Origin: Balanoglossus misakiensis
Lineage: Eukaryota > Animalia > Hemichordata
Assembly (NCBI GenBank): GCA_040954595.2
Contig: CM082594.2
Span: forward strand, 1,072,247-1,136,246
Reading direction: 5' to 3'
DNA: 64,000 nucleotides
In this document: positions 6,001 through 34,200 of the stretch, piece by piece
Numbering within the stretch: the first letter of the stretch is position 1
Layout: each line of letters opens with the position of its first letter
Program-made: the position numbers and the translations under genes
Notes under the pieces: model-generated
What the model was told of the DNA's origin: nothing
Seen by the model: the letters and a program-made list of their open reading frames with translations, nothing else
Databases searched by the model: none

Positions 6001-7158
6001 TTCTTCTTCTTCTTCTTCCGAGAAATTCGGCCAGGTAGATCTGGAAAACCGCTGCACCTAGGGGGCTAAACTTGGTAGGGTGATAGGGGCCAATGAGTAG
6101 ACGTGCAGTGGCTCGTGAATATTTAATTAGTCACGTGACCTGGCGGCCATATTAGATTTCCTGAAAATCGTTAAACGAGTCCTTCTCAAATTTGGTGTGC
6201 AGGTAGCCTACCTTCTGTCCATCATTTTACCCCATTGAAATCATGACGTCACACATAAAGTTTTTTTGCTACAATTGTTTTTCTGAAAAACTACTTAAAA
6301 CTTTAAAAATCTTCTTCTCCAGAACCAGCGATTGCCGATTCATGGGATTCGGGGTATGTGGTCACCTAACCTATGTTTATCAAGTTTGCGAAGCGCACTG
6401 TGATTGGTCGATCATTATGGCGGCCATGTTAAATTTTCGGAAAACCATTGAAAAATGTTGACAGCACGTAAATTCTTGTTTTGGATATGAGTCATCATAT
6501 GACCGGAAGTTGTTACAATTTTTCGGGGCAATTTTGACATGACCTTTGACCCAGTTTTAAAACAACTAATTATATATGCATATTCCCCATACCTCCTATT
6601 GTAAAAGCACCACAGTCATGAATTTTGTGGACATGGGTACCAATGCTGCCAGGACATGACACAACTATTTTGGTAATTTTGGCAATGACCCTTGACCTAT
6701 TTCTGAAACATCATTTTTCTGCATATCTAATTCCAGGCTAACCAATAGGGCTAGAGGTCTGGTTTTAGTTGGACATGGCCCACTCCGGGGTCAAAATTTT
6801 ATGCCCAAATTTTGGGTGACCTTGGATGACCTTTGATCTAATTTCCCATATCTCAGCATCCACAGCAGTTAGAGTCCTGGCTTTTGGAGGGCCGATGGAG
6901 CAGATATGGAGTCTTACACAAGACCTCATTAATTATGCGCATACCTAATTCTAGGCGAACCAATAGAGCTAGGTGTTTGGTTTTTGTTGGACCTAGACTA
7001 GTATGGGGTCCGATTTTTTTGCCCAAATTTGGGGTGACCTCAGGTGACCTTTGACCTACTTTCCAATATCTTGGTATCCACAGCAGATACAGCCTTGGCA
7101 TTTGCTTGTTACCATGGGAACCGCTTGTGCCCCGCCAACGCTGCTTGCAGCTTTAATT
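1..7158 (+). mobile_element. Stack of at least 5 non-autonomous Helentron-type (HINE/DINE-1-like) elements in an intron
   Basis: 5' end at ~964 has subTIR plus its inverted copy (AGGGCCCAAGCGC..GCGCTTGGGCCCT), followed by a (CTTT)n microsatellite. 3' ends (GCTTGGGCCC subTIR, stem-loop GCTGCTyGCAGC, TTTAAT) occur at ~948, 2460, 4118, 5999 and 7158. Internal ~240-bp subrepeats vary in copy number. No coding capacity. Confidence 0.8.
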
Positions 7159-7395
7159 GTATTTTGCATTTTCTCACGGTGGCGACCATATTCCTTTGCG
7201 GCGAAGATTTATTATTTGTCTGGTTTAAACTTGCATATGCACTCATACTTAGGGTTCATAATACTTGTACATAGTTCAGTGCATACTTCTGTATGGGCTA
7301 AAGGTGGTGCAGTTTGAAAAAAGGGTGATAATTTCCCAAAAGTACCAGCTGATGCACCGATTTATGTCTAATCTCTGTTTTGAATTTCTTGGCAG

Positions 7396-10300: not shown

Positions 10301-13237
10301 ACAACATCATTCAGAACATACAAGGACACTCAAACCCGTCTAAAACAAACCCTGTCTAATCGGGAAACCTCTCTTCAACCAACAGTTTTTCCTAGTCCCT
10401 TTTACATAGAAACATGTTAATGTGTTGGTGTTCTGTTTAAAAGATTTGACTGTGTAATAAATATGGTTGTCACACATACACCATTAAGACAGTTCTGAAG
10501 CATCTCAGAATTGATACTGTCTTAAAAAACATGTGTGGACGGTGTAAGTGGTCCTGAAACGTCTCAGATTTGAGACGGCTCTGCCAGCCAGACCTGAGCC
10601 GGTGTAAGGATTAACACCTCTCCGCAACCCATTGTCTATGGGGCCGAGCCTCAGCGCCCATACATAAACTTTGTGTGTGTGGACACAACATGACTCAAAG
10701 GATTAATGCTCTGTGGTTAGCACTGGCAAATAGTGTCTCAAATTTTACCCTGTGTGAACCTGGTAAAAGAGGCATTGTGCCCTAGTGGCTAGGGTTGTGG
10801 GTTCGTTACCTAGACCTGGGCATTTGGGTAGTATTTGCCTGTTGGATGATATATGAGACACAGACATTTGGGTAGTATTTGCCTGTTGGATGATAGATGA
10901 AATAAAATTAAAAATATATAGACAAATAAACTGTGTTCTCCTTTCTTTTACAGCATTTGATTGTGAAAAGCCAGCACCACCAGTTAAAGGTATTTCCATC
11001 TGTAATGAGTTTGAGTCGGGTGTGTTCTGTCAGGTGGATTGTTTACCAGGATACAAGTTTGCAAGCCTGCCAGCACCTTACTATCTCTGCCATAGTGAAG
11101 GATATTTTAATCCTGAGAATCCAGACGAGGAATTCACCTTCCCTGGATGTTCAGGTGAGAAAAAAATGATTTGGTATCAGTAAAGAAATATAATCAGGTT
11201 GCACATGCACATTCAGAAAATGCTCCAAAGAGAGAGAGTTGTGAGAGGGGGTATTCCAGCATTGAGACAATTTTCTTTTAGTTATAAATGAAAAGAGAAA
11301 TATGAGTAATGCAAATTCTTGCTTTACAGTATGTCAAGGTTGTGATTACAGGTAGATAATTTGTTAACATCATATCTGCTTACCCCAATATAAAGCTCCA
11401 GTACATTTGAGCTATTTTCTTAATATTTTGTTCTGGGTAAGCAGCTGTAACTTTCCTGATTGGCTAATCGGTTTCGCAGTCTAAGTCAATACATCGTTCG
11501 CTAGATTGAAAATTGCATCTTTAACAAAATTTGTTTGTTTGTATTGTTCTACTGCAGCTCCTGGGAAGACTCAACGTGGAGTGAATTGTGGCGTGTCATA
11601 CAATTCACAGGCTGGTACATGTAACAATGGTGTCATCCAGCAATTGAGGATCAGTTTTATGAACACTATCAACTATCTGAATGATTTGTTTGGTATTTGT
11701 GGCGGTGAATGCAACTTTGATGACCTTGAAATAACCTGCAATGCCTCAAACCGAAGAAAGAGACAGGCTGATACTCAGCTTGTGGTTCAGTTCAGTTTCA
11801 CAACCAATGCGTGAGTAGTAATTGTAATTTTTCGAGTATTTTATTCCCCTTCTGTTCTATTGAAATGACTTTGGTGACATGTCTAGGGTACTGATCCCAG
11901 GCTGTGTGAGGACCAGCTCTGTATTCCCTATACAGCTGGTGTTTGCATTATTGCAAAATATTCCATTCATGCAAGTGAAAACAAATTATTTTGTGTCTTA
12001 ACACTCAAACATTTTCAGTTTTTGGCAACCCCATCATTTCTGCCCACCTTCCTTCATGTTGCGGCATCCTGTATTCTAAAGATTCGTGCATTCGAAATAT
12101 ACTGCAAAACGTGTTATTTTCGCGAGCAGTAAATTTCTGCAAAACATGCGCTGGTCAAAAAAACGTTAAAATAAAAAGTTGTGTAAAATGTTTTTGGAGA
12201 TAATGATGCAGTTAGTGAAATACGAGAACTCGAAAATTCGTCCTCACGTAACAGTCGCCTCTTTTAATATCGCGAAAATTTCCTGTCGTGAAAACAACCC
12301 AGTTTACAGTACACACTTCTGGTTGGTATTGTAATGTGGCATATGTAAGAATTTTTTGCCTGTTGTTTTATCCATTAGCTCTGCTGATGCTGCAGCTGTA
12401 GTTATTGAAGATGCAGTCAAGAAAGGTACTTTTGATACAGCTGAATATTCGGTCGACGCTGAGACATTACAAGTTGAAAGTACGATATTCTGTTCCAATG
12501 GTAGTGTTCTTGTTGGAGAAGAATGTGGTGAGTGCCTATACTCCTCAGTTGTTATGTACTTTAACCCTTTCACTCCCAGTTTCCTCTATAGAGGTCAAAC
12601 CTTACCATAGAAAACAATTGGTTTGGACTGAACCATGGTGGTGAAAGGATTAAAACTGTGTCCAAAATTAATATTATAAAAAGGTGTAGATGTTAATATG
12701 TTTATATCGCCTGATATGACCTGTTAGGTGGGCCGTATTGCTGCGAGTGTGGTTGTGAGTCGCAGTGTACAAATCAAAGACAAGTGTGAGTGGTAAATAA
12801 AACCCAACCAAGAGGTGATATAAGGAAATAATTGATTTGATATGCTCATACCAAGGAGGGACAAAGTCTCTTTCTCGCTGCCCTTTTTCCATTAATTATG
12901 TTTGATAGAAGACACAGTTAATGTTATTCTACATGTGGATATATAGTGAATCAACATTCAACCACACACAACTGCCATCCCACTTGTAGACACAAGAGTG
13001 AAAAACTGGCCAAAATGAATGCTGTGTGTTACAATTGTAGTTGTGTTTTAAACCATTAATGCATAATGATCAGTACATGAACAATGTATACATCTGCCTT
13101 CAACATTTTGTATTTCCACAGTATTGTGTCCTGAAGGGTCGTACCATGACACTGAGCTGAGTCAGTGCCATCCTTGTGCAATTGGATATTATCAACCCCT
13201 TGAAGGACAAACAGCATGCAATGCCTGTCCAAATTAA
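7396..13237 (+). CDS. Host gene segment upstream of the insertion (pentraxin, EGF, HYR, CCP exons and first half of the split exon)
   Basis: Half-exon 13122-13232 reads VLCPEGSYHDTELSQCHPCAIGYYQPLEGQTACNACPN and runs into an element-derived TAA at 13235-13237. Confidence 0.85.
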
Positions 13238-16200
13238 AGCTGCAAGCAGCGTTGAAGGGGCCCAAGCATAGAGTTAATAACCATTAGACTCCATTCAGGG
13301 TTGTACCATTCAAATGCGTAGGCTGTATTTGCTCTGGATGTGGAGATATGGGGAAGTAGGCAACCACCCGAAATGGATGTCTTACAAGTACAAACACAAC
13401 AACCAAAGGTGAACTTCTACGTTGTAAGTACTTCAGTTACTTCAAAGGTCAGCTGAGGGTATCCAAAAATTGGGCCAAAAATTAGGATTCTTATTTGGTT
13501 CATATTCAAGACAACGGAAAATCCTCGCTGTTTGGGTTTGTCAAATTAGATATGGCCATAATAATGAGTTACGCAAGTAAGTTACAGGTAGCCCCTAAAA
13601 TTTAGCATTTCATGACGCAGAGGGTCCTACCCTACCCCTCCAAACACCTGGCTATACATGATGTGCGTGCTAACATATGGAAAGCAGGTCAATGGACACC
13701 TGATGTCACCCAAAAATTTGACAAAAATGTTCATTCCTGTTTATGTCATGTGCAAGAAATCCTACATTTGCAGCCCTTTCACTTAGCCTACCATTAGGTA
13801 TGCACGTAATACATGAATCAAGCAGGTGTCGCAGGTATCCGCCTGTATTTGGCATTTCATGATAGTTTCGCTCGGAATACCAAAGCTGCACTTGTACAAC
13901 GGGCTGAGATATGGCACTGTACGACAGAGGTCATCCAAATCAACTTATACATTTGGGCAAAAACAAACTGACACTTACATTCGTCCCTGTGGAACAAAAA
14001 CCACACCTATTGCCCTGTTGGTTAGGCTGCATTCACAAACACCTCTGGAGGGGGGTGGGCAGGAGAATTGAGGGGGGGATTTGAAAAAATTTAGGGTATG
14101 TAAGGGGGGGATTTGAAATAATTTTGGGACTGTAAAGGGGGGGGGGGCTTGAAAACTTTGAGGACTAAATATTTATTTTGAGTCCACAAAAATGCAGTTT
14201 TGAACCCTTCATAATACAACATTTTCTAATGTGGGAGGGGAACACCCCCTCCCACACCCACCCCCGTCATTCATCAGCACCTTTAAATCATTGACTGTTT
14301 TATCTAGTGTCCCAGGTCAGGGGACTTGCCCCCACCCCATGATAACTTTGAGCAGCGACGGTTAAATTTGTCCTCCCCAACATACCGGTAGTTGAGTTAA
14401 TTTGCTTTTGCCGGGTTCATTAAAATGCAGTTGTGAACTCTGTATTTTATAAAATTTTCGTACGTGGGAGGGGGACACCCCCTCCCAAACCCACCCCCTT
14501 CACTTCTCGATTTACAATGTCTCCCAACACAGAATACTAAGTTAAAAAAAATAGAAACAATTATGTTCAGTTTTAATACCCACTGATAAGGGGAAACATC
14601 AGTTTCAAATTCTTTTCATGAGAGCGCTGTTTTTCTTTTTTACAAGATAGATAGGTGATGTGTTTTGCTGTGTGAAAGAAAATTGGGGGGGGGGGGATTT
14701 GAAAATTTTAGCAGTTCGGAAGGGGGGGATTTGAAAATATTTCGGGTTGTTGAGGGGGGCATGTGAAAATTAACGGTAAAAAAAATTGAATTCTCCTGCC
14801 CCCCCCTCCAGAGGTGTTTGTGAATGCAGCCTTAGTGTCCAATTAAATGTACAAAATCAATGACTTAGGCAGGTGCAACAGGTGACCCCGCCTTTGGTAT
14901 ATCTTTATGGTCCCATCCGTATATGCCCCCCCCCCCACGCCAAAGCTGCATGCATCTGCTGTGGATGCTCACTAAGCAAAAGTAGGTGAAATGTCACATA
15001 AGATCGCCCATAAGGCTGCATTCACAAACACCTCTTGAGGGGGGGGGGGGGAATTCAATTTGTTTTACCGCTAATTTTCACATGCCCCCCGTACACAACC
15101 CGAAAAATTTCAAATCCCCCCCTTCCGAACTGCCAAAATTTTGAAATCCCCCCTCCCCATTTTCTTTCACAGAGCAAAACACATCACCTAGTATCTATCT
15201 TGTAAAAAAAGAAAAACAGCGCTCCCATTTTTTATGTATTTGTATCCTGTGTTGGGAGACATTGTAAACCGAGAATTGAAGGGGGTGGGTTTGGGAGGGG
15301 GTGCACGTAAGAAAATTTTATAAAATACTGAGCTCAAAGCTGCATTTAATTAGAAAATTTTGTAAAATAAAGGGCGCGAAACTGCATTTTTGTGGACTCA
15401 AAATAAATATTTAGTCGTCAAAGTTTTCAAGTCCCCGCCCTTTCAGTCCCAAAATTATTTCAAATCCCCGCCTCAATTCTCCTGCCCCCCCCCCTCCTGA
15501 GGTGTTTGTGAATGCAGCCTAACTTGACAGGAAAATCGGACTTCATATTGATCCATTTGCAACAAATACCACACTAGCATCCCTTTCATTGACCCCACAA
15601 TTACGCATGCACATAATTGAGTTACGCAGGTGTCACAGGTGACCCCCGAATCGGGCGTATTATTTTGGTCCCATACAGCTGCATGAAGCTGCGTGCCATT
15701 ACGGGCGATCTGATAACCCCCACGGCCACCTGCGGGCCAACCCCCATACTGAACGTTCAGTTGCAACGTCACGACTGAAGTAGGAACTGTTGAACGGCAA
15801 AGAAGCCTGATCTCTGATTATTGCTGGTACCATACTCCCTTCGTGCAAGAAAATCATTGGTCTGCTGCCGCAATACATTGAATGTTAACCAGTGCAGGTA
15901 TTTAAGGGTGTCGAAAAGACAAGAGTGAGGGGCCAAAGTGCGGGACACGCACAGTGCAATAAATGGCACTCTGCGGGAATTCACGCACAATGCAATATAT
16001 TCGACTCTGCGGGAATACGCACACTGCACAAGATGTGGGAGGACCCTTGACTTTGATTACATTTGAATTTCGAGGAGTTCGATCGTGTTTTTGACAACGT
16101 CCGACGACATTCGGGCGAATGATCGGGCGATCAACCACCCACGATCGACATTTTCTACTTTCATGTTGCATTTCGAGGAGGTCGATCGTGTTTTTGACGA

Positions 16201-19200
16201 TGTCCGACGACATTCGGGCGTTGAAAATAATAAATGATCGGGCGATCAACCACCCACAATCGACATTTTCTACTGTCCTGATGTTGCATTCGTAAGTGGT
16301 AAACCCAATGACCAACAGAGCAAGGTCCGTTCCCTGCGTGTCGGATCACATCCCATCGCGCAACAATTTCGCTGGAGACTGTCGCTGCACTCACGCCATA
16401 TGCACATCTTTGCGTTCTAATTCGAGCGGGAAGTGAGTTATCCCGTCTATGCTTGTTCCGGAAAACCCGTGTTATGACGTCAAGGTCATTCATTGATACA
16501 AGATCGCACTGTTGACGTGCGACGCGTTTGCAAATCAAAATCCACGCAAACGATTTTCCGGGCAGGACTATGACATGTTCACAGGATGAATGCACTGCAA
16601 AAAACGTGATGTCTGCAGAGCATGTATGTGCCATCACCCATATGACAGGCTGCAGCTTCATGAACACGAGCTAGAAACAAAGGCCATGCGTATGTACGTG
16701 TGCACGTTCCGTGTCTTCTCCTTGCTATATGCATTCGCGTTCCGAAAACACACGGTAAAACTCATCAAAATGTGTTGTTATTTTATATGCGATGTCTGTA
16801 CAGTGTGCACGCAATTTTCGCCTTTTATGTGCCAAATAAACTATTGAAACTTCTGTTGTCATGCTCTTGTCTTGGTATTTTTCTTCTTCTTGGCATCGCT
16901 ATTAAACCTCTCTTGTACATATACGTTCAATTTTAGAGATAACGTGTAGGCCCCCTCAAAGAAAGCCGGTTGCCCCCTCAAAGAAAGCCGGTGTTGCTAG
17001 TTTGGCATTTGTTGCTAGTATTCTGAATATCTCCCCTGTGACAGCACAAGTCCACGAGCACCTGTGGTCCGAGGTCTGGGACCGTCGATTTTAAGTGTGT
17101 TAAAAGTAAAGCAAACTTAACCTCAAAACTGAATATTTTCCCTATACTTGAACATGCATAATTACAATAGAATAAATTAAAATAAAAGACTAAATGAAAT
17201 CAGATCTTTAAACCAAATAGTGTTTTGAATAGAGCAATTACTACTCTATATCATATATAAAAGACAAAACAAATACATTAAAAAAAATTTCCAAGTGTCC
17301 AAAAAAATTATTCTTTTGTTTTTATACATGTTAAGTCTATGGGCATTATTTCAGTCTATTTTGCAACAACATTTGGAATACTTAATGGCGTCCAATCTCA
17401 AAAGTGTAAACTTTTTTATATTCTAGAACATCTCATGATGGTTTCTGGAAAGTTTCATCTTTGAAATGCTTAAAATAAAAAAATAATCTTAAAAAAGCAA
17501 AGTGTATATTAAAAAAAGCTAATTTACAGCTAATTTACAGAAGTTTGCTTTTTGGTCAAAAAAGTGCTTTTATGTTAAAATATTTAAATGTAACTTTTGT
17601 CAAGAGTTTATAGATAGACACTCTACTTGTGTACCAAATTTCGAGGTCAAAGGTCAAAGGATAATGAAATCCGACATAGGTAAACCAACAACTATAAGCA
17701 ATGGCGAAGTTGACCTTGACCTTCGAATTTCAAAATTTTTTCACCACACCACATTAAAACAACTTATTATCAATCTATCCTGTAATTTTCAGTGGTTTCC
17801 AACTATATTAAGGGGGTGACACCGCGTACCCTAAAAAGTATGTTTTTTTCAATAGGTTTTTCCGCAATAACTTTTCAAGGTCAAGTTCAAAGTTGGTCAA
17901 ATTTTAGTATGTTATAAAACTCGCCGAGACCTTTCTGAAAATATATAGTTTGTTATGGTTTATGTAAAATTTAAAAGTACCTACCAAGAAATCCGTCCAT
18001 GCACAATTTGGACTTGCCGTCTGGAGCAACTTGCATATACCCACCAAGGCATTTTTTTGGCCTTTCTAAAAATGTTTTTTTTTAAAGGCTGGGGTTAGAC
18101 AGGGGACCAAAATCAATAACAACAACCTAAAAGATAACAAAATAAATCCAAACAATTTTTTCTAACCCTCTTTTTTTGGCCAAACAAGACATAAGTTGGG
18201 CATTGTGGGACTCGACCTTAAAAAACATGGAAGGGTTGACTTGTTTTTGTTGATATTTTTTGTTGTTGTTGTTTACATGTTTACCTACATTGTATCAAAA
18301 GGAGGGGTAAAAAAAACATTGGCAAGGCAGTAGGGTTAGAGCCCGAAATCTCAGGTCCCCTAATGCCCGTTGGACCCTAATTAGGGTTAGGGTTAGGGGG
18401 TTTAAGATCACATACTGGTACATGTGTATGTTTTGTGAGTTGTGTGATGTATTTTGTAGTACAAGGGATGTCAATACATCCATACAGGAGTGCCTATATG
18501 AGCGCAAGTCTCTTTTCAGGATTTCTCTGTAACACTTCAAATTTTTGACATTATCGGTGTCATCCTTGCACAAAAATTAATGACCCTCCCCTTGACAAGT
18601 GCCCAAAACGTAGCGGCCCTCCCCCAAACCGTTGCATGAGAAATGGTGACCCTCCCCCCAATCGCACCGGCCCTCCCCCCTTGTTAATTCTGACCAGGCC
18701 CTTACCGCGCGGCCGATGCCTCCCCTAAGTTGGCAGTAGTTTCGACTAGAATTTCCACTGCAAACCAAAACATGGTTCATGCACGCAAACTTATGTAAGA
18801 GTAAAAGCTCGGGTCATCAGTAACATGTGTCTGAAATATTGCATTTTCTTGTGTGAAAGTTTTGCCATCCAACGTGCATGTAAGGCTGTGCATGAATGTA
18901 CATTGTACTGCACTGTAAACTTGGACATTGCATTACCGCAAGGATTTAATTTCATTCCACCAACAAATCAGGGCCATGGGCAGATATTCACCCATTTAGG
19001 CCGAAACCATCACTTTTAGCTTTCAATAGTTAACATGACTTTAGTTGGGGTCTTAATCGGCAACGGGGCTGAAATCGGCAGCTTTACCTGCCGATCTTAT
19101 CCCTTAGAAGCCATGGTTTGTTTGTCAAGGCATGCGCGGGGACGTATTCGGCATGGTGCCGAATTCGGCACAACACCGGGACTAAAATAAAATGTTTGCT

Positions 19201-22200
19201 GATAAAAATGTTAATGGTGTTGCATCATTTTGTCGTTCATCCTGGAGTGACTGTGATCCTGTCAATCATATTGCGACAATTATTTTTTTCAAGGTTGTAC
19301 CAATAAAAACCTAACATATCCAATAGTGTTTGTCGTTTATTTATTATCTTATTTGGGGTGCCCCCGATGCCTACACATGTACATACTTCGTACTGTATTA
19401 CGTTCGCTTCTGCTTTTAATCTCGTTTGAAATGCCGTTTTCTTCGTGTATACGTTTGCATTTGTGCCTAATCTTGAAATGTTTTTGGGCTCACGTGATAA
19501 AACCGCGATTATTTGACCCTTTTTGTGAGATTTTTATTATGTGTTGTATTCTTTGGGTTCATTTTGTTTTACTGATAAGGGTTTTCCTTCATGTCTACGT
19601 GATGCTAAGATGCTCTATGTGAATCGGTCTGGGCGGGGTTCATCGGTACGCTCATTTTGCGCAAGGCAATCTGCGCCACTCAACTAATATTTCTCTATGA
19701 ACTGGTTGACATGTAGGATGAGTCGGTAGAAGGGAAAATAAACTTATAAGACCGTTTCATTTTATAAGCAGTCTCATTTAGAATGATGTCCCATCGGATG
19801 CAATACTTATGCTAAAAGTATACCTACTGGCACAGAAATTTAAGTTCAACCAAGACTTCATCGTCACATTCGACCGAGTTAAAACATAAATAATCACTGT
19901 GGACAAATACTGTGGAAGTTATATCTCACGGTGGTATTTCCTCCCGAGTAGAATGGTTAAAAGCACTAATAGCTCGATAATCGGAGTGAGAAAAACGAAC
20001 AACATTTACACCTGTTTTCAGTTATTGCCTTGTTCGTTTTATCACAGACAATTTGACTACTAGTATTTTTCTGTGGTTTTATTCCATGAGAGTAGCGTGT
20101 TGACTGAAGAACTTGTGGAGATCATTATTGCCTACATTTGTGAACTCTGTTATAGCGCTCAACAGAAACAAATTTTAAAACCTTGTTGACTGACATCTTA
20201 GTTGACAACCTTTTGCTTTCCCAAGTTGTAGGCCTACTCAATATATGATATTCATTTTGCAGTTTTTTCTCGAACAACTTCCTACCGATAAGGTCGTCAC
20301 CCGGTGACCAGCACACAGACTTGTACACCGTAACGCCATTCAAGGCCGTGATGTCGGGCGAGACTTAAAGTTATCAGAAATTGATTAAGTTCGTGGTTAC
20401 AACAACTCACACATATTCATAATTATAGGCCAATGTACCGAAATATCGTACGTTCGTTCAGTGCAGCACTCAAATGATATAGTTTTATAATAGGTCTGGT
20501 ATGTTAGTCTTGCCAGTTCGCGTTCTTATTGCCGAAAGTTGGGTCATTTAGCTCGCTATCATCAACGGTGTAGTATGGTAATGTGGTGATAGGACGACGA
20601 TGTAATAAGGGGTCAAAGGTGGAAGATCCTCGGAATCTGACGAAAGATGGGTGAGGGACGATCGTTTAGGGTAGCCTCGATTTCGTTGAGGACCGTCTGT
20701 AGCTCATCAACAGACACGAAGCGTCGACCTAGAACTTTTCTGTGAGATATTTTAGTGGGGAGCGCGTTTTGGTATAAAACACCATTCTACGGGGCAATTT
20801 GCATACAATTAGTGTTAAACACACCTGTTCTCGCACGTTTAGTACAGGGTAAAGGTCACTTGCCCGTCGGACAAAAGACTTTTATTTTTCACTTGTCCGG
20901 GCTGTCCGATCTTCTCTATGTCATGATGCAGTTCCCAAAGAAGTACCAAAGGCAACAGTGGCAGTCACTGACTGCACACTTTGACAAATTTCACACGAAA
21001 ACACAGATTAAAGCTGCAGTTGTTGCAACGTTTTTCGATCCCGTCACCAAGAAACGGATTTTTGTCATCCATGGCACCCAGCCACTTGCCAGAACCCTTG
21101 AAGCAAACGTTTCAACATTTCTGACTGTACCAGCGCATCCTAGTGATGATAATGATCAACAACCCCCAGAAAGCGTACTGCCAGATCTAAGAAACCACCA
21201 TAAGAAGAAGCTCTCTTCGTTCACTTACTATGATGTAAGAGAACTTTTACCAGCATTGGTAAAATGCACCACAAATCGTGCCCAACCTTTGTGGGACAGA
21301 CCAGACATGAAGCCAGTATGGTGGCCAGCCGAAACACCGTACTGCAACCCCAGTCGGCCCGGTAAAGTGGTTGCTTCAACGTCTTCGTGGGTCACGCGCA
21401 TGAAAGACGTTGCTAAGTCATGTTACCAGTATTATGGACAGGTCGAGTTGACAGGTACGTACCATTTAAACGGTTATTTAATTAGAATGGTGAAAGTTTG
21501 CTAGACATTACTCCTGAGAATGTATAGATTCAGCAATAAACAAAATCATCCGTTTTACACGAGCTATACATTCTTTTGAGATGAAGGCCTTGAAAACGAA
21601 CATCGACTGACAAAGTTTAATTAACCACAGTACCGAAAATGACGTTTTTTTGTTAAAAGTGGTTTTTAATTTTGTTCAGCTGGTCTCTTGGTAAGTACTT
21701 CTCTGCAAAACAGTGAGAATATTTTGGCTTACTAAACTTGTTCTCACTTTTTCACAGGCGATGATGAAGACAGTAGGCCTACTGATTGTCCGACTGGTGA
21801 GGGTGCAGCGGTTACCCGAGACCCACAACTTGAAAGCGATATTGCCCAATTTTTCTCAGGCAATAATGAAGTCAGTAGGCCAACTGATTGTCCGACTGGT
21901 GAGGGTGCAACCCAATATCCACAACCTGAAAACGATATTGCTGGGCATTCTATTATAGGTAAGCGTGTCTTTTATTGCAACTATAATGTAGATCGTGAAG
22001 AGTCATAGTCTACAAGGTAAATGTTTTTAGCCTTGACTGTAAAAAAGAAAATGTAAAAATCATACACCAGGGTCCAGTACATACATTTTTGTTCTATTCG
22101 CATCATACAGTAAAATTATTCGTGCAGATTCAAATTCGAAGTAAATTCCTCGATATCATCACTTGTTGCGCTTTTCTTGTTTTTTTTTTTTTTTTTTTTT

Positions 22201-25200
22201 TTTGCTGTTTGCGATGCATCGTACGTGTCATGTGAGACACTGTCGGGAGTTTGGACTTGGGTTTGTCGTGTCGAATTCACCTATGTCAAATTTATAAGCC
22301 ACAGTCCCTCAAGAAAGACGGTCGGGAATCGCCCATTGTTCGGACGTGCGAATGAGGGGATTAGCTGTAGGATGCGCATTATGGTCACGTGACCACCTTA
22401 GAGTTGCGTTTTTTCCCCTTGGAAGCAAGCGGCAGTCGCCCTACTATCTATGATTTTCCCGATATGTTAGTTATGTTTGTGGAGGAACTGTGTATAAGCC
22501 AACTGACATCATTTTGTAGGTTTATATGATTCCGCTGGCAATTTTCAGGATCTAATACATTTGAATGCACCATACGATACGTGACAATTTTATATTGAGT
22601 GTGCTCCGAGAAAAGTAACAGCGCAAAAATAGAGGACAGCGCGACATTGCACATTTATACGATATCGGATATTTATCGTCTAGTATCGTCTAAAACATTA
22701 AACTAGACTGTACTTTAACAACAACTTTGCCTGCTTCCCGACTATGTCGGACCTCAAAAATATCCGATAGTATCGATACTATCGATACTAGAGGCTAGTA
22801 TCGTCTAAAACGTTAAAGTAGACTGCACTTTAACAGCAACTTTGCCTGCTTCCCGACTATGTCGGACCTCAAAAATATCCGATAGTATCGATACTATCGA
22901 TACTAGAGTCTAGTATCGTCTAAAACGTTAAAGTAGACTGCACTTTAACAACAACTTTGCCTGCTTCCCGACTATGTCGGACCTCAAAAATATCCGATAG
23001 TATCGATACTATCGATACTAGAGTCTAGTATCGTCTAAAACGTTAAAGTAGACTGTACTTAAACAACAACTTTCAATACTAGACGATACGTGGTGTACTG
23101 ACCTCTTGAGCCGTCAGTGTGGATTTTGTGTTTTTAACGTTTGGCATTTTCAGTCATGTGTATGTGTACATTTACCCAATTTAGTTCTACAATATTTACA
23201 AAGGTCATTTTCATCTTTTCTCTATAAAGGCACAAACACAGAAGTTGGAGCAGTGCTATCATTCATACAGCATGAATCAGATCCTCACTACCTCACACAA
23301 GATCTGAGTACAATAAATTTTGAGGATCTTGGTAAGAAATATCCCTATTACAATGTATTACTTTCTTTATCACAGTGAAACCTCTCCAAGTTCTATGTTT
23401 AACCTCGACCATGTGGTGGAGTGATCGTGATTTAATATGTCTTAGCAAACTTAAATATACTTAAATATACTTAAACAACAAGCCAACCAACAGGGGAAAA
23501 CGGGTTGTAACTGGAGAGATACAGACTGAATTTCTTGCTTACAATCCTTTAATCAAAACAATCACTCTTTATCTGTCCATTCAGTATTTATCTCTCCTGT
23601 TACAAGCAGTTTGTTCCACTCTGGTCAGTTTGATTGCTATCATTGTCATTATGAATTTTGCAATTACTTAAGCAATAAAACACCCCCAGCCATGGTATAC
23701 CACGAGATTTTTGACCAGTTCACGACATATACGCACGAGCGATAGCGAGTGCGTATATGGAGTTGAACTGGTCAAAATCGAGTGGTATACCATGGCTGGG
23801 GTGTTTTATTGCTATTATATTATGCCAGTATATTGAAACTTTGCATATAACATTTTAAAAAGGCATTTTCTTTGACTATGATATATGACTGTGGTATATG
23901 GCTAATATATCACGGTCACGTGTCGTGTCTCGACCAATCAAATAGCGTGATTTACACCATCAATATACGGTATAATATAATAATTATTTAATAATAATGG
24001 TGTTAATGATTTTGTATTTGAATACACATAGTCATTTAAATGTGACTAGGACAATTATTATAGTTTAACCTTTGTTCAGTGGTTGTTTCATGTACTTCTT
24101 GTATGGAGAGAGGGATACCTCAGTGTTAAAAAATACCAAATTTTGCTATGTGTCTGTAAAAAGGGGTAAAAGCCATTATGTAGTCAATAGGTTTTTAATT
24201 TTTATGTTTTACCTGTGTTCTGATGACTTAAGTAAAACTATTGAATAATGTCAACCAATACACTTCTATATTTCATTTTCTTTTCAGGTTCACATCCCAT
24301 TCACCCATCACCCCAGCCAGCAACTCCATCAGCCAACAGTTCCATCAACACAAGTGCAGAATTATCACCAGTGTCTTACACACTACCACAGCAACAGCCA
24401 GCAGCACAAATCCAACAGCCAGAATCACCACCAGCAGCACAAATCCAACAGCCAGAATCACCACCAGCAGCACAAATCCAACAGCCAGAATCACCACCAG
24501 CAGCACAAATCCAACAGCCAGAATCACCACCAGCAGCACAAATCCAACAGCCAGAATCACCACCAGCAGCACAAATCCAACAGCCAGAATCACCACCAGC
24601 AGCACAAACCCAACAACCAGCATCACTACCGCCACGCCGCAGTCAACGGTCAGGAAGGAAGACCAGAAAAGTTCAAGATGATGAAGAACTGCAACAAGAG
24701 CTGGCAACCCTGAAGAAACTCCACCAAATGAAGAAATCAGGGGACCTTCTTGACCTGGTGCTCAGTTGCCCAATTCCCAAAAAAAAGCGTCGGACAAACC
24801 CATTCCATCTAGTGGCCCTAAAAAGACAAAATCCCACTGAGTACAACAGATTATTAACTGCATTTGAAGCATCAGAAGTTAGTGTGAATGTGGTTCTCCA
24901 GTTCATGCACCAGCACATAAAACAGTTCAAGAACCTGCAAATCGATCATGCAGAACAAGTTTTGGGCTTCATTTGTCAAAAACTCAACTTATGAGTTGAT
25001 ATTTTCATTGTCTTTTAACTCTTTTTCCCATTCTTGTCTTTCTGTGTTAATTAATGTACATTTCAAAACGCAGTTATCAATCTGTTGTATTCTGCGGGAT
25101 TTTGTCTTTTTAGCTGGGAAAATGGGAATTTGGTCAAAACTCGGTAACTTAATTATTGGTCAGATTGCTTTGCAAAGTGGTGTGTACTTTATTGAGACAT

Positions 25201-28200
25201 CATATAGATTTTTTTGTGGTGATATCATAAAATGACTAATTTTGGTGAATTTTTTATCTTTTTCCCAAAATCTTCTTTTACAAAAAAACTTTTCAAATTC
25301 ATAACAAAAATCATTTGAGGGTGTGTAGAGGTTTTTCATTTTTTTTTTTTTTTTGAATCATGGTAAGAATTCAATAGTATATTTTGGGGTGATTTTTGCC
25401 ATTTTTGGTCCAAACTCTCAGAACCCTCTACCCCCATTGCTTTTAAATTTGATTTGCAGGTTACCAGGTGTGTTCTCATAATGATTTACAAAATCTATGA
25501 TGAAAGTGTCAATATTTTGTGGGGGCAATATCTTGTATTTATGGTGCATACTTTCCAATTTTGATTTGAAAAAACTATATTTCTCAAAGTGTTGGGCTGA
25601 TTACAAATGTACTTTAGAATTTAAGTTGTGAGTTAATGGGATGGGGTTCTTTAAAATTGTAATGGAATCAAATCGTAGGTATTTCGGAATTTGGCTGTTC
25701 TATTTGGTGTATGTACAGTACACGTGCCATTAGCAGCTTATGGGTCAGTGTTTGCCCATTGATCTCTCTCTATGTGTGTGTGTGTCTGTCTGTCTATGTA
25801 CTTCAGTGTAGACTTTTTCTTGATTAATCCCTAAATGGGACCAGTGTCCTTGACGCTGTTTTTGACAGTTATCTTTGAGTAGTGATTGTTTTTGACAAAT
25901 ATGAACGGTATATTAAAATAACACTAAAGTCCACCTCGGGTGTGTGGTGTACTTCTTTATTCAATTTTATATACATGTGTGCCTGTGTAATGATTTGTGC
26001 ATTTCTTCTTTATTAACAAGTTTATCGGTGTACGGTAGTTCTCTTTTTTAAGGATGTGGTGGCCCTGAGAAGGGCCGTTTGATATGCAGAGCATACGTCT
26101 CTGAGACGCTAAAAAACTTCCATGAAAACACCTCCGTAGTTGTCCTCTGATGACTGAATTTCTTCTTTAGTACCCTGCGAACACACCTCCTATACATTCC
26201 ATCTCCCCATAGATGTATATGGCTGGTCTACATTCTCATTCTGATAACAAAATGGAAATTCGACACGTCAGTACAACAATACAATAAACTGTAAAACACC
26301 ACTTTCTCTTATGCATCTTGTTTTGTTTTGTCAGCACAGCAGCAATGTAAAACCATGCAGCAAGAATTTTACTGATACAGATGATAAAGCATCATGTTAA
26401 AGTTATCTTTTACCGTTTTCATCAGCACAGTTATAAAATCGCATGATTCCAAGCATCTCATGTCTTTGGGAATATGGGTCATCTTGTTACCTCGTGTAAC
26501 ACATCATCCATGGATTTGCCCTCTTCATTATGGACAGTTTGTCAGTACTTCTCAAAAACTGAAACAAAATAACAGACAGACTTTATATGACGGCAGTCAT
26601 GGGGAGTGACTGTGATGATGGTCTACCGTTCATAAATCTGGAAAAATATAGTTTTTGTTTTCTTGAAGTGTCTAATGCTGCAGTCACACAATCAACTGAA
26701 ACAGTCAGAGAATTAATTAATAGTATTCTGTGTAATGTAAGTTGACCACAATGAAAGCAAGAATGGTCCTAAATCAATATAAATCCAGATGGTTTCAGCT
26801 ATAACTCATTTGAAAAAATGTCCGAGCTAGACAGTTAAAGTGCGGTTTTCAGAACAAACAAAAGACCTTATACTTTATATCAGTCATTGCTTTCTGTTCA
26901 ATTAAATAGAAAAATCGGAAAAACAAACTTATCTATTTTAAAACCTTGAACTACAAGTAGTTCAGGTGACTTTTCTTCTTTTGATTCCAGATTGCAAGGA
27001 ACAGTCTGACATGGAAGATGAAATTATCTGGGGTCATATAAGATACTTGTGCCTTAATTTTCTGTAATGCTGCATTGCTCTGCTCACAGATCTGGGTATT
27101 TATGTTGGCCAAATTTCTGTTGTCCTTGTACTGTTGCAGGCTATAACCTGATGAACAACTGATCAGTAAAATATAAAAGAAGATTCTTCTGTGAAAATTT
27201 TAACAGTATAAAACATAAACAATTTTTTTCAGACAAATTGATATCGTTCCTTAGAAAATTGACACACATGCCCTGAATACATTTCAGATACCTGATTAAC
27301 AGAGCTTATGAGCCAGTCAGAAGTTGTAATTTGAGCAAACCTGTTTATGTCACCAGTCCGGGTTATGTCTCTGAGTGGAATAATAGAATTGACCAATCGG
27401 TGATTGCCATTGTGAAATTTGATTTTATCAGAGCAAAATCCTTTCCCTGTCTCCTACCTCCTAACTGACTCCAAATATGATGTGGTTAACTGGTCGTATA
27501 CTTCTTAGCTGTTCCAGTCAACTAAGCTCTGCAATTGCCAAACATAGATGATTTGAAAAATATTCTTTTGAGCTTTTTAATCTGATACTCACCCAATGTG
27601 GTTTTTCCAATGGAGACGATCCACTAAGAAAACTGTCTTCATGAAATAGTTTGGTTCTCTGAAGAAAGACAAAAAATCACTTCATTAGTTCTAATCTTTA
27701 TATTCTTGCTGAAAGGAGTAAGCAACGTCAATTCATCAAATTCTTGATTTTTTTTTTTTGGGGGGGGGGGGGTAAAACACAAAATTAACCATATGACAAG
27801 CTGACATCTCAATATGAAAAAATTGTAACAAAGTGGCTGCCAGACCACCATCTTGGATCATATCGCAAAAAAAATTGAGTTAAAGGCAAGGGTGGGCAAG
27901 CATAATTGAGCATAAAATAAAGCTTAGCCACCCTTCTCTTAAGTTTAACAGAAGTGTGGTAATCACATTAACATACAAAACAGTATATCAAGGTTGAAAT
28001 AAGACTTACCGATTTAAACAGTACTGATGCAGCCGACATGCATTGTCATATATGACAATGGCTGGAGGTTGTCTTAGTCTTGTTGTCATAATGTTGAATG
28101 GCACTTCGGGTGACTCCACTTGCCTCATAGCCTGGAAGCCATAGCAGAACCCATGTTGACAGAACACAGTGAAAATGCCAGGTGATAACGTAGGGTGTTT

Positions 28201-31200
28201 GTTGGAGATCTTTTGGCAAGTGTCATCACCATGTGCAAGTCTGTCTTTGTCTTGCCGGTACAGAGGTTTCCTATTAAATGAAAAGTGAAAGCATGATAAC
28301 TAAGAGAATGGCAATGGCATGCATAGCACATGGGTACATAAACTTCCATTTTGAATACATATAAACATGTATACAGAAAGGTATGTCTAAGTGGGAAATG
28401 AAAATTCACAAAAGTAATGAAAATAATGCAAAAAGTGGCAGCTCTAGAGGCTTAAGACAGACTTCAATTAACTTTCAAGTTACAGTGAGATATCCTTACC
28501 CATGAAGCTTTGGTAGGCAAGGGAAGCAAGCTACAGGGTCTTCTATTGGATCTGGATATTGCACAGTACTATCAGGTCCCTGGTTACATACTTTGTATGA
28601 GCTCCTCACTCGTAACAACACATCTCTAAGAAGGCGACGCACTTCTCTTGGGATACCATGAGGATTGTGCCCGAAATGTGACAGCAATTTGAAAATAAGA
28701 GGAGCATCTTGCTGTACAATTTCAAGTTCCCCTTGATGTCTGCTGTCAAATATATCGAGTCCGTGTATTATTTTCTTGATGACATGTTTAGCCTGTGAAT
28801 CTGGGGTCAATTGCAGAAGAGCACTTGCAGGCGAGTTTTTTGACAAATCTTGAAGAAATTGGCAGAACTCCTTTGGGGCTAGCAGATTTCTTCCGTGTCC
28901 ACTGACGAGTTGGAGAAATTCCATAAGCGAATGGAGGTGACTGTACTTTCTCATCAAATTAATCATCACTGTGTACTCAAGGGGTGTAAGTGGTTTCTCA
29001 GCTGGCTTGTTGGTACTACAAAACTGTAATAACAGTTTCCTGACCTTGGCATTTGGTATATACACTCGGTCACAGTGACGTGTACCAATATCCAAAGGCT
29101 GGCCTTGGTCACGTGATGCCCTCTCTGGGTCTGGAAGTTCTTGCAAGAGGCGTTTGTTCAGTCCTACACTCGTACCATCACATATCAGAACAGAAGGCTG
29201 CAGCTCACATATAGGGCATTGGTATACAGTGCCATAATTTATGTCCAATAGCCTTGCAAATGCATTCCAGGCATTCCTATGTTTGTGGTATTTCAAAGAA
29301 ACAGACTCTGATAACATAGCATGTTTTTCAGAGTAGGCCCTATTTAAGAACAGAAAGAAAGATTAATGTCAGGTGATTGCCAGGAGTGAAAGAAAGTTTA
29401 TAATGTTTATCTGTTGTAACATTTTTATACTGTACCTTCTCTGATAAGAGCCCCCAAATTAATGGGGGGTGGGGGTGAAAAGAATACAACCTGGTACATC
29501 AAGAAATGTGTTTTTGGTGGGCTTCCTAATCACCCTGTAAATTATATCATGGGAAAAATGGCGCTCTTGAGCATGTGACAGGTCTAAACAATTATCGGAC
29601 TGGTAAAAGCAACAATGAACTTTTGAAATTTGATGACTGACTATATGGGTAACAGCCTTCCCTAGAGAATATTTAGACAAAAATTTTGCTTACCACCCCT
29701 TCGTTCAAGTATTAATGGGTAATTTCAGTATTGATCTTTCCTTGCTGAGCTACCAAATACATAAGTTCCCTAGTCAATGATTATATTTTTAGAAATACAA
29801 AGTATATGTACTTACCTATGGAAAGATGCCAACGGATTTCTGGACTCTACCATCAAATGAAGGTAGGAGAGTAATAAACTGTAGTGAATAATGTCCTTGT
29901 TGTTCAGATTAAACATCAAATCTCCATGCCCATCATAATGCAACCTGCACATACATGGACCAACACTTGGACGATAGTACACTGCAAGGAAAATAATGAC
30001 TATGTTAATATAATTACCAATACATGTAGGAGATCATTAGATAAGTGGGATGGAAGTTGCGTGTGGTCGAACGGTGATTCACTATATAGCCATATGTAGA
30101 ATAATATTCACGGTGTCTTGTATCAATCAAACATTTTAATGGAAAAATGGCAGTGATCCAATGCAACCTTAAACCAATGGTACAGTAAATAAGGTTAACT
30201 TACCCTTGATAGTTTGTTCCTCTCCTTCTACATAAACATGCTGAAGTGAATGTGTCTCATAATACACAATGGCATCTCCAACAAGCCAATGTTGTTGTAC
30301 AGGGTCATCAACATCCCATGCATGTCCATGTTGACAGGTAGAATGGGGGCCAGCACTTGGTATCTCGGGAATTAGATTATGCTGTACAGGCTGTTCTCCA
30401 CTTTGTTGTTGTTGAAACTTTACCTTCAGAGAGTCATCAAGAGGGTATGAGATTGGCTTAAATGACACGCTTGGGAAAGTACTTTCTTTCAAAGTGCGTT
30501 CAGTTTCTTGAATCTCAACCTCATTTTGTCCACACCATATTCGGTATTCTTCAACATGGTCACATGTGGTTCTACCATATGCGCAGGTCTCACAGCTAAG
30601 TTTTTTACCAACATGTTTGTTCCTCAGAGATATTATATGTGTGTCTTCACCTATGGTAACACTAGTCAGGAACGGATTCAATGACAGGCAATCAACAATG
30701 ACTGATGTGTCTGCAGAGTTGGGGTCCACTTCAACAGGTACATCAGGAAAAAGTTCACTTGCTGCCCAGGCATGAAGACAGTATTTATTTTTTTCAGTTG
30801 TGATGAACTCATCAAAGTTTTCTGGTATCCCACGCTGAGATGAGGATAATCTGGCTGCTTGGATTAACCCATCCTGACATGAACATGTATACAGGAACTC
30901 CTGAGACGTACTCTGCACACTGTAAAATCGCAGGTTACGTTTGACAATAACGTGCTGTGATATCAACTGCCCAGTCTCAATTTCACAATCTGACAATACA
31001 TATGTATTGCCAGATGATAGCTCCCACTTTCTGTTCTGGGCTTGTAACTGATGCAGGTATTCTTCCCTTGCGTTATTGCCAATTGTACCAACTACTGAAG
31101 ATATTCTGAAGAGAAACAAACAAAACTTGGTCACATATAAACATTTATGTTCACTGATTCCTCTAAAAAAGTATCTATTGTTTTGAAAGAGCATATCAAT

Positions 31201-34200
31201 AACTAAATAAATTTTCATTGTACTCAACACATATGATACTAATTAAAAAAGCAGATCTGACCTAACCATATTTAAACACAGAAATGTAAAAAGAAATTAA
31301 CAATAGGCCAATAAAGTGTCATGTGTGATGGCAATTTTAGAGAGGCAGTGCTAGAGAAATTGATATTTGACTAAAATGATATACAAACCATTACATTACC
31401 AGCAGCTAACCTCCCCCCCCCCCCATTTTTATCTCAAGTAATGTACACACAAGGCAGATAAGTCCCCCATAAACCTGGCTTCCTATCAGGTGTTTGCTGA
31501 TAACATGCCAAATTTAAAGTAGGGATACATAACCAAAGTAAGCTGTTGTAAAAATCAGTGAAATTTCCATATTTGTGTTCTTGGGGCAATTTTGGCCGTT
31601 TTTGGTCTTAAATCATTTTTTTCTCTGATTGATTTGAAATTTGGGACTCAATTTTTATAACACATAAATGTTTGTGTACAACTTCTATTAAATCCTGATA
31701 TCACATTTTTTTGTGCTTTTCTTTGTTAAAAATAAAACTAAAACCCTAGTTAGAAGGCCTAACTCCAGTCTATGGTCTCCAGTCTTGGTGATCGAGTGCC
31801 AGAGATCAATTCCCCTGCTATGACTGATTACCCTTACAGAGTATTCATTGGCAGGATTTTTTTGGTTTGAAATAAAATAGTAGTTGCTGAAAACACAGGT
31901 CTTCAGGTACTTCCCCCCAGTCGTCCCACAATGCAATGCGGTTTTCAAGATGGCGGTTAATACAGTTTTGCCCTGAGAGAGAAGGGAGGACACGATCACC
32001 CCGCCGGGATAAATCAATCAAACTATTAAAAGAATTAAATTAATGACACCTATCAACGCCTGTTGTCAGACATTTAATGAGCGACTTTCGTACCTGAAAA
32101 GGGCAAATTAATACCGGCCTTTGTCTCCTTCACGATCACATGATACTGCACGCTATGTGTTACAAACAGTGCAACTCTAATATATACTTACTCAAAACGT
32201 TGGCGCTTTACGCTTTTAGCGATCTCCTGGTGTGGCCGCTTCTTTCTTCGCACATTCGATGGATGGGATTCAAAAAATCGACGACGTTGTTTGCGATCCA
32301 TTCTCTATTGAAATGTAATCTATAATAACGAAGTACTGCCAAACTATATGCATGACGTAACGCTATTTAAACGTTTCATTTCATATCGTTGAGGGCGCCA
32401 AGAGTCCCGCAGAGTCGAATATATTGCATTGTGCGTGAATTCCCGCAGAGTGCCATTTATTGCACTGTGCGTGTCCCGCACTTTGGCCCCTCACTCTTGT
32501 CTTTTCGACACCCTTAAATACCTCACCAGTGTAGCCAGGTCTAGATAGAAACATTTGAACGGCAACAGCTAACAAACTCAGCGTAATTCAATAAAACGCC
32601 CTAACACAGCCTGAACTCGGATAATGTGTTATCCCAAAATTCATTCCGTGGAAAATAATCACTGGTCTGTTTACGTATTTCACCCGATTTTCCAAGGACT
32701 ACGGCAACCCGCCAGAAGTGAGTAGCCTGCTAATGAGATCTCCACAACATTACGTAATGACGGTCAAAGTCCGATGCCCCAGTGTCCGTCCTCAGCCCAC
32801 CAAAAATGCGAAAAATATTACAAAAATCTTCTTCTCAAAATCGACGTAGCCTAGGACCTTGAAATTTGGCACAAAGGATTTTGGCCACATGGTCTACAAA
32901 AATCGCGAAAAGAATGTACATTCCCCCATTAACGTGCAAATTAGGTCAATTTGAAAATTTCGCTCGATTATAGCCACCAAGTCACGTGACTAATTACAAA
33001 TTCAAAGGGCAGGTGCACTAGTACTCATGGGCCCCAATCATCGTGCCAAACTTCATAGGCGCAGGTGCCGGAATTTCAGAGAAAAACGGGAGCAAAAAAA
33101 CGACTCAAGAAGAAAGAAGAAAAACTCCAGCAATAACAGAAGGGGACCAAGCGCCTGAGGGCGCTTGGTCCCCTAATAATGGAGTCACCAGGGGAAAGAG
33201 ATCATTATCCATCTTGCAGTGTTTTGGTATGTATAACAGAAGGCAATATCTCCTCCTCGTCCACAGCCATAGCCTAGTATCTAGCCGTATTTTGTCCGCT
33301 TTGCTTCCAAAACTAGCATCTAGCCTCACTCATGCCACTGGCCCGATAAAACCCCATACCCCTTGCCGGGAATTGTGACGTATATATCAAATTATTGTGG
33401 TGTGATCCAATATGGAAAGAATGACAATTGGAATGTTCATCTCTTTGGTTGAAAAAATAATTTTTCAACAATGATGTCTATTGCAGAGAGGTGCGATGTT
33501 GGTCACTACTTTGACAACGGGACTTCTCAGTGCCAAAGCTGCCCCATTGGATTCTGGCAATCAGAAGAAGGAAAGTTTGTGTGTAATACTTGCCCAAAGG
33601 GAATGCTTACATTAGTTGAAGGAGCTACTGATGAGTCACAATGTCAGGGTAGGTACTTGTGTTATTTGCTATTCTTGACTATCAATCACATGATCTGGCC
33701 ATGTGACGTACCCATGGCGTTATCATTTGTTAGTGACAGGCAAGCAATATTTCGGCATCCAGTAAACTTTTTTCCGAGTAGGTTTTTACTTTAGAACCGC
33801 CAGATATGTAACATATTCAACAGTTTAACAAATTCACGTGAGTGAAAAGCAGATAATCGTGAATATCAAAAAATTAATCTTCTCAATTCCAGAGGTATGT
33901 AAATCAGTGGGAGTCCAACTTAGTGTCAATGGGTCTTGTGAGTCGTGTCCCATGGGAACCTATCGATCAAATGCTGAACTTCAGCCATCTTGTATGCCGT
34001 GCCCATTTGGCTTCACCACAAGAACAGTCGGTTCAACCTTAAGTGAAGATTGTAATGTTCGTAAGTATTATGTATACAACTTTTCATGTTGTATCTCAAC
34101 TGTACTGAACTGAAGGTTGTATTATTGTGCCTCAGTTGTTCAGAATAATGATAGTCCTCCAATTTTATTCTATGCTCTTTTTCCATTCCATCAACAGCTT

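Follow-up and report, generated by a model that had tools for sequence, protein, structure and literature searches.

The transposon and its two genes

A stretch of 64,000 nucleotides from the hemichordate Balanoglossus misakiensis (GenBank assembly GCA_040954595.2, contig CM082594.2, positions 1,072,247 to 1,136,246), here called the window, contains a DNA transposon that carries a KDZ transposase gene and a second gene coding for a protein related to the transcription factor NRF1. The element occupies positions 15895-32524 (16,630 bp) and is flanked by a perfect 7-bp target site duplication (TSD), ACCAGTG, found on the plus strand at 15888-15894 on the left and at 32525-32531 on the right, without mismatches; this is the single insertion that was read. 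An alternative reading of the element as 15895-32523 gives an 8-bp TSD with one mismatch. The two ends carry terminal inverted repeats (TIRs) of 119 bp that are 100% complementary, at 15896-16014 and 32405-32523. The left end (15895-16030, plus strand), delimited by repeat comparison and by contigs that depart from the window, starts with 5'-CA and contains three units of about 33 bp, starting at 15939, 15972 and 16008, in which TGCGGGA is followed by CGCAC 2-5 nt on. The right end (32405-32524, minus strand), found by inverted-repeat comparison, is made of the second TIR and one terminal base, and in this copy it finishes in TC rather than TG, a difference for which one substitution would account.

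At 15896, three contigs of run X2 diverge from the window into flanks that differ among themselves (agreement 0.63), which fits further insertions sharing the same element end. No contig of runs X1 and X2, both from one sample, bridges the empty site. Depth in X1 and X2 was about 240 and about 1,100-1,300 for the main form, against about 26-50 and about 150-200 for variant contigs; this contrast hints at several near-identical copies but, depth not being copy number, it is not used as evidence here. In one contig of X1 and X2, positions 16314-16346 are joined to 32438, with a short side of 33 letters, and this join is possibly the end of an internally deleted or related non-autonomous element.

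Both genes lie between the TIRs in convergent, tail-to-tail orientation, with 1.96 kb separating their stop codons, and tblastn with the analysis's own protein set found no further gene in 15895-20922 or 24995-26950. The transposase gene (26951-32301, minus strand), defined by GT/AG junctions and homology, is open over its 850 codons and has seven exons (32301-32192, 31105-30204, 29981-29816, 29339-28500, 28270-28010, 27658-27593 and 27158-26951). Its product is 46% identical over 853 columns to protein P0156 of the hemichordate Glandiceps talaboti, and 45% identical over 654 columns to P0152, a relative that itself clears the Pfam KDZ cut-off (34.3 bits). Single exons of the window transposase match the KDZ (E 3.9e-4, 20.6 bits) and CxC4 (E 2.4e-3, 18.2 bits) families, both under the Pfam cut-off. 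We take residues D447, D748 and E807 to be the candidate catalytic triad. The relationship with P0152, together with defined termini and a TSD of 7 or 8 bp, places the element among the KDZ transposons. We describe it as Kyakuja-like, from its TSD and its other described features and not from a tree placement, because in the accessible text of Kojima 2025 (PMC12730594) the TSDs are of 7 bp in Kyakuja elements of Laccaria and of 8 bp in Zisupton and Dileera; the Laccaria elements have CA..TG ends and no TIRs.

The second gene has four exons on the plus strand, with GT/AG junctions in phase 1 throughout, and codes for 513 aa followed by one terminal stop, so that the intact four-exon reading frame between inverted repeats described in an earlier note on this DNA, made by a model from the letters alone, is upheld. 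Exon 1 (20923-21454) codes for a MADS-like dimerisation domain (residues ~5-74) and an NRF1 DNA-binding domain (residues ~80-177), recognised by Pfam and by structure match. Exon 2 (21758-21958), placed by splice signals and phase, is acidic and of low complexity, and it is internally duplicated (21745-21845 and 21847-21941). Exon 3 (23230-23331) contains a short S-T-I-N motif common to five relatives, and exon 4 (24288-24994) contains a 33-bp tandem repeat coding for P/Q/A, an RRSxR..RKT motif at residue 395 and a predicted helical tail of ~110 aa; each was placed by splice signals and its motif. The splice model is based on these signals and on short motifs of annotated relatives in exons 1, 3 and 4. 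Annotated relatives carry L[TM]G at the end of exon 1, a motif S/T-T-[IL]-N resembling that of exon 3 was present in all five relatives checked, and RRSxR, as in exon 4, was found in six of nine divergent proteins and in none of 111 canonical ones. No homology support was found for exon 2 or for the final ~110 aa, and this C-terminal tail gave no Pfam family, no fold match, at a predicted local distance difference test score (pLDDT) of 49 in AlphaFold2, and no usable Atlas match.

Some minor features of the two genes were also recorded. At position 21010, contigs of run X2 have G at full depth, which changes residue 30 from Lys to Glu, and the relatives are mostly acidic at this residue. An inverted copy (87.5%) of 48 bp of exon 4 coding sequence (24818-24865) lies at 25066-25113, 70 bp beyond the stop codon, so that a read-through transcript could form a hairpin. 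The introns of both genes contain repeats, namely a 115-bp tandem array (22678-23073), a 143-bp palindrome (23671-23813) and, at 30043-30156, a repeat also present at 12875-12985 and 35155-35263; neither reading frame is disturbed by them.

Relation of the second gene to NRF1

Exon 1 scored 55.1 bits against the Pfam profile PF10491, Nrf1_DNA-bind (cut-off 23.5 bits, E 1.1e-14, profile positions 32-208 of 213), and matched chain 8K4L of human NRF1 with an E value of 6e-14 over residues 6-176. The four short motifs that the earlier note had paired with remembered NRF1 motifs all fall in order in the 8K4L alignment. An AlphaFold2 model built from a 19-row alignment reached a mean pLDDT of 88.9. 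Foldseek ranked the NRF1 structures 8K4L/8K3D at places 1-3 of the matches to this model, followed by MEF2 structures, and VIA-align gave Z scores of 14.5 with 8K4L and 13.8 with 8K3D (root mean square deviation 2.5 Å over 98 residues), the next unrelated entry being SRF (Z 6.1 over residues 5-71). Given these NRF1 matches in both programs, the protein as modelled carries both the MADS-like dimerisation domain and the NRF1 DNA-binding domain, and the profile and the structural comparisons bear out the family assignment of the earlier note. In the Atlas, exon 1 scored 2234, under the recognition level of 2300, and its top match was an unnamed cluster (0.90), followed by NRF1 clusters (0.88 and 0.86). 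In fold, the DNA-binding domain also resembles GTF2I repeats (Z 4.8; Atlas 0.76) and plant EIN3 (Z 4.4), but these matches were rejected as too weak, as was a Pfam match of exon 1 to PF11001 (E 0.15), which is below trust level.

A HMMER search over 1.84 billion representatives yielded 149 proteins, where a word-based protein search with the exon 1 query returned none among 600 candidates. The first ten relatives looked up included four from Ptychodera flava and two from G. talaboti, both hemichordates, and one from an insect, and all 12 divergent relatives scanned reached the PF10491 cut-off. The trees that relate the window protein to these sequences are all unrooted. In a tree of the DNA-binding domain with 148 of 150 sequences, the window protein fell in a group that has N-P-x-[KR] at the position of canonical N-[VI]-R. 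A more careful tree was built from 25 of 40 selected rows, 15 long, short or redundant ones being omitted. In it, the 11 canonical rows formed one side of a branch supported at 97/95 and all four NRF1-like proteins that are paired with a transposase (see below) stood on the other, with the window protein joined to P. flava P0001 at 99/98. The split between canonical and divergent proteins recurs, with a support of 91, in a quick tree of the 40 rows.

The overall identity of the window protein to human NRF1 is ~26-28%. It retains the equivalents of T201, R206, W224, N242 and W258, R206 and N242 corresponding to its R106 and N142, but R244 is replaced by S144, and N-[VI]-R becomes N-P-S-R. R244 is present in 18 of 18 canonical rows and in one of 22 divergent rows, and the window protein is also changed at the positions of Q202, G220, G223, S245, D246 and T259. 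From the tree and from the loss of N-[VI]-R, as far as sequence comparison can tell, the protein is not the NRF1 orthologue, as the earlier note had anticipated. According to the accessible text on the NRF1-DNA structure (PMC10810270), R206, N242 and R244 make the base-reading contacts, and the homodimer accepts half-sites at various distances. With R206 and N242 kept and R244 replaced, the window protein is predicted to bind DNA, probably with a shifted specificity.

A second set of divergent NRF1-domain proteins (P0087, P0104, P0108, P0116, P0117, P0141 and P0142) was also noticed. They have 600-1300 aa and shared downstream blocks, two of them carry an N-terminal cysteine-rich CXXC-like repeat, and they look like an unannotated host family.

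Probable recurrence of the pair and proposed role of the NRF1-like protein

KDZ relatives were sought with the conserved portion of the transposase of a relative, and 30 proteins were obtained among 51 candidates. Consecutive RefSeq numbers denote neighbouring genes. Three such pairs were found, each on the same contig: in P. flava, KDZ proteins XP_070537884-887 are followed by NRF1-like XP_070537888, and KDZ protein XP_070541358 by XP_070541359, annotated as 'Ewg-like'; in the brittle star Amphiura filiformis, NRF1-like XP_072021476 is followed by KDZ protein XP_072021477. Adjacency of the genes is deduced here from accession numbers consecutive on one contig, and not from the DNA. The consecutive pairs account for three of the eight named divergent NRF1-like proteins and for three of the ten named hemichordate or echinoderm KDZ loci, and a fourth NRF1-like protein is on a 4.77-Mb scaffold with a KDZ gene 144 accessions apart. 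The chance of finding two of six adjacent is roughly 1e-6 to 4e-4, assuming 5-50 KDZ loci among 20,000-35,000 genes. Accession order thus suggests that the pair is present repeatedly in genomes of hemichordates and echinoderms and that its two genes have been inherited together, and on this reading the recurrent linkage to KDZ transposases that the earlier note had expected extends over two phyla.

Furthermore, the four paired transposases, including that of the window, belong to one 9-row group of hemichordate and brittle-star proteins (95 in the Shimodaira-Hasegawa-like approximate likelihood ratio test, quick tree). Subgroups are mirrored between the two families: the window protein with P0001 among the NRF1-like proteins corresponds to the window protein with P0181 among the transposases, and P0003/P0002/P0012/P0085 correspond to P0182/P0152/P0154. 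A metagenome contig (L007) gives a hint of the same layout, since a spliced, weakly NRF1-like gene (10076-10945, minus strand) lies there tail-to-tail with a KDZ transposase gene (6239-8740, plus strand). Its NRF1-like exon, which follows the transposase at a distance of 1.5 kb on the other strand, gave a weak match to a canonical-only profile, with an E value of 3.7e-4 among 2,812 six-frame pieces, the best E value in a reversed-sequence control being 0.88; Pfam did not detect this exon, and no TIR was found in L007. The other nine metagenome KDZ loci, of 1.5-6.3 kb, three of which overlap L007, contained no NRF1-like match, L007 being the only one with long flanks on both sides. Among viral contigs, none of 52 pattern matches encodes a KDZ relative.

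Together, these observations make it very probable that the NRF1-like gene is a resident of this element lineage, whatever its role, and in this respect the proposal of an accessory protein made in the earlier note is well supported. The idea that such a gene is a host paralogue that came to lie beside the transposase by accident, or was acquired by this copy alone, has in its favour the existence of divergent NRF1-domain proteins with long host-like tails (P0087, P0104, P0108 and P0117), but the position of the gene between TIRs and TSD, within an intron of an unrelated host gene, and the three accession-adjacent pairs across two phyla largely refute it and leave it highly improbable.

As to the role of the protein, we propose with moderate confidence that it is an accessory factor predicted to bind the element's own ends and to help the transposase. 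If it behaves as the NRF1 crystal structure suggests, the protein would dimerise and the dimer would bind the major groove through R106 and N142, with a specificity that S144, at the position of R244, may have changed. The sites of the dimer would be the repeated TGCG-containing units at the element ends, and the bound protein might then do what the Myb-like protein does in Harbinger elements, helping with excision or with import into the nucleus. Each unit of the TIR has two TGCG cores, a number reached by 2.2% of base shuffles of one unit, and these cores resemble the NRF1 half-site TGCGC given in the accessible text of PMC10810270. In Harbinger, by the account available in PMC9179366, the Myb-like protein binds the TIRs and the transposase, and it co-evolves with the transposase and shares its tree.

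Several observations weigh against this proposal. The units of the TIR are not the NRF1 consensus: TGCGC occurs 0 times in the left 136 bp, the site GCGCA-n-TGCGC is absent throughout the element, and the two TGCG cores are oriented opposite to the NRF1 palindrome. Repeated units in TIRs are also normal binding sites of transposases, for which a second protein is not needed. Regarding the pairing, five of the eight divergent NRF1-like proteins have no adjacent KDZ accession, and seven of the ten KDZ loci no adjacent NRF1-like accession, among the proteins found by what was an incomplete search; four of the NRF1-like proteins have no KDZ match on their contig. Many related KDZ transposases, in Branchiostoma, Patella and others, are without a demonstrated NRF1-like partner. 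Finally, a single co-divergence split is informative among the four pairs, and its support is weak (86/82).

The first alternative is that the protein is a transcription regulator only, whose dimer would act on unmethylated CpG-rich promoters to activate the transposase gene or protect it from silencing, with no part in cutting. In its favour, both element ends have a CpG observed to expected ratio of 1.1-1.4 and the region upstream of the NRF1-like gene has one of 1.0-1.1, compared with 0.23-0.32 in the transposase body, and the transposase start codon is ~100 bp inward of the right TIR. However, invertebrate genes often combine CpG-rich ends with a CpG-poor body, neither Pfam nor fold comparison reveals an activation domain in the protein, and most predictions of this explanation are shared with those of a cofactor that binds the ends. 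It finds precedent in mouse germ cells, in which, as the accessible part of PMC12420836 describes, methylation-sensitive host NRF1 activates unmethylated retrotransposons, and in the TET/JBP genes of fungal KDZ elements, read as anti-silencing cargo in the accessible part of PMC12730594. On balance we consider a purely transcriptional role unlikely.

A role in targeting, in which the NRF1 domain and the basic RRSxR motif would bind host sites or chromatin, tether the transposase and bias insertion, appears more doubtful. The RRSxR..[RK]T motif near the C-terminus is conserved and presumably resembles the arginine anchors of nucleosome-binding proteins, and a DNA-binding domain that dimerises could hold two DNAs together. 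The motif may nevertheless be a mere nuclear localisation signal, and the single insertion site that can be read is a host intron amid other repeats.

We also find it rather improbable that the gene is a passenger, a fragment of host NRF1 captured once by an ancestral element and having little or no function in transposition. The C-terminal two thirds of the protein are of low complexity and vary among relatives, several relatives are truncated models, and the five NRF1-like proteins for which no adjacent transposase was found would fit such an origin. Over the distances concerned, however, neutral cargo would be expected to decay. The paired proteins are just 27-38% identical to one another, yet their frames are open and they keep the P-x-W-W-P core and most DNA contacts, and the RRSxR motif shared by divergent and absent from canonical proteins is new.

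Origin, surroundings and comparison with known systems

A more speculative proposal, to which we attach little probability, is that the NRF1 fold has long been harboured by KDZ transposons of marine animals, and that single-copy host NRF1/Erect wing would be a domesticated accessory protein of such a transposon, in the way that Myb-like genes of Harbinger elements have been domesticated. The earlier note had likewise raised a mobile reservoir or origin for the fold. Diversity among the forms borne by transposons far exceeds that of all canonical NRF1 combined, and both have the full two-domain layout, but the trees are unrooted, and fast evolution after one capture would explain this diversity equally well.

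A search of titles and abstract openings, whose scope excluded subscription journals, genome-paper supplements and Repbase, found no KDZ element with an NRF1-type partner. The accessible main text of PMC12730594 contains 'NRF' 0 times, that of the brittle-star genome paper PMC11310086 has no KDZ, Zisupton or transposase, and the accessible part of PMC12062965 does not mention NRF1. Two-gene DNA transposons and KDZ cargo are already known; an NRF1-type partner is an apparently undescribed design. It would add the NRF1 fold to the DNA-binding domains carried by transposons, in a group of transposons that has been little studied. Hemichordate and brittle-star annotations contain NRF1 paralogues labelled 'uncharacterised' or 'Ewg-like', and these are likely to be transposon genes, which bears on counts of transcription factors. 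With both genes open and its ends intact, the copy in the window is suited to testing how animal KDZ elements move, and natural variation at the R244 position gives a way to study how the NRF1 fold shifts its DNA specificity. Rooted trees could test whether the transfer went from host NRF1 to transposon or the other way.

The surroundings of the element consist of host exons and other repeats. Exons on the plus strand have similarity to pentraxin (E 1e-7) upstream of the element and to ephrin-receptor-like sequences (E 8e-14 and 7e-12) downstream, and they indicate that the element is inserted in an intron of one host gene, the unity of this gene being judged from the flanking exons. These exons (7262-12610 and 33453-34113) code for laminin-G/pentraxin, weak sushi and ephrin-receptor-like cysteine repeats, interrupted by the transposon, a layout that we take to be SVEP1-like. 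Farther downstream, a 335-aa open reading frame (48702-49709, plus strand) has DUF3504 (E 1.7e-11) and phage-integrase (E 1.9e-6) domains, presumably typical of a Crypton-like tyrosine-recombinase element, and is distantly flanked by palindromic repeats at 38575-38768 and 50389-50582. Two broken copies of non-long-terminal-repeat retrotransposons, with endonuclease and reverse transcriptase domains, are at 43301-46193 and 55405-58060 (plus strand), and a homogeneous 86-bp satellite of ~29 copies with 98-99% identity occupies 61334-64000.

When compared with known systems, the protein has in common with canonical NRF1/Erect wing (EWG)/P3A2 (PF10491; 8K4L, 8K3D) the MADS-like dimerisation domain followed by the NRF1 DNA-binding domain. 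Binding of GCGCATGCGC as a homodimer is a defining property of the canonical group. The window protein differs in having no N-terminal acidic extension with a nuclear localisation signal and in its unrelated C-terminus. The NRF1-like forms are multi-copy and transposon-borne, whereas for canonical NRF1 the accessible text of PMC8122590 lists a single gene in six of the nine animal genomes.

With Zisupton, as presented in the accessible parts of PMC12730594 and PMC12062965, the element shares a KDZ transposase, inverted termini and the presence of extra domains, such as F-box, in the family; it differs in its TSD, at best 7 bp here against 8 bp, in a weak CxC4 in place of CxC7, and in having its extra function in a separate gene. 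It is closer in several features to the Kyakuja lineage of KDZ (Kyakuja-Dileera-Zisupton) transposons (PF18758, CxC4 PF18717), as described in the accessible text of PMC12730594, with a KDZ-type transposase, a 7-bp TSD, a 5'-CA start and a cargo gene adjoining the transposase. Size is also similar, 16.6 kb here and 16.5 kb for one fungal Kyakuja consensus in Table S1 of that paper. The animal host is a difference, as are the 119-bp TIRs, with none in the two Laccaria families (Kyakuja-1/2_LB), the ..TC end of this copy, and a cargo that is an NRF1-type DNA-binding protein and not TET/JBP.

In the way it may work, however, the element is most likely comparable to PIF/Harbinger. In that system, according to the accessible text of PMC9179366, a transposase is accompanied by a DNA-binding protein that is encoded by its own gene, evolves faster and mirrors the transposase in its tree, as seems to be the case here. 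The transposase families are unrelated, the TSD is of 3 bp there and of 7 bp here, and the partner is a Myb trihelix protein there and has the NRF1 fold here; Pfam found no Harbinger or Myb family in the element, but KDZ and Nrf1_DNA-bind instead. Binding to TIRs and transposase has been demonstrated for Harbinger and is a supposition for the element in the window. The likeness is an analogy of design, in which an NRF1-type protein would take the place that the Myb-like protein has in Harbinger.

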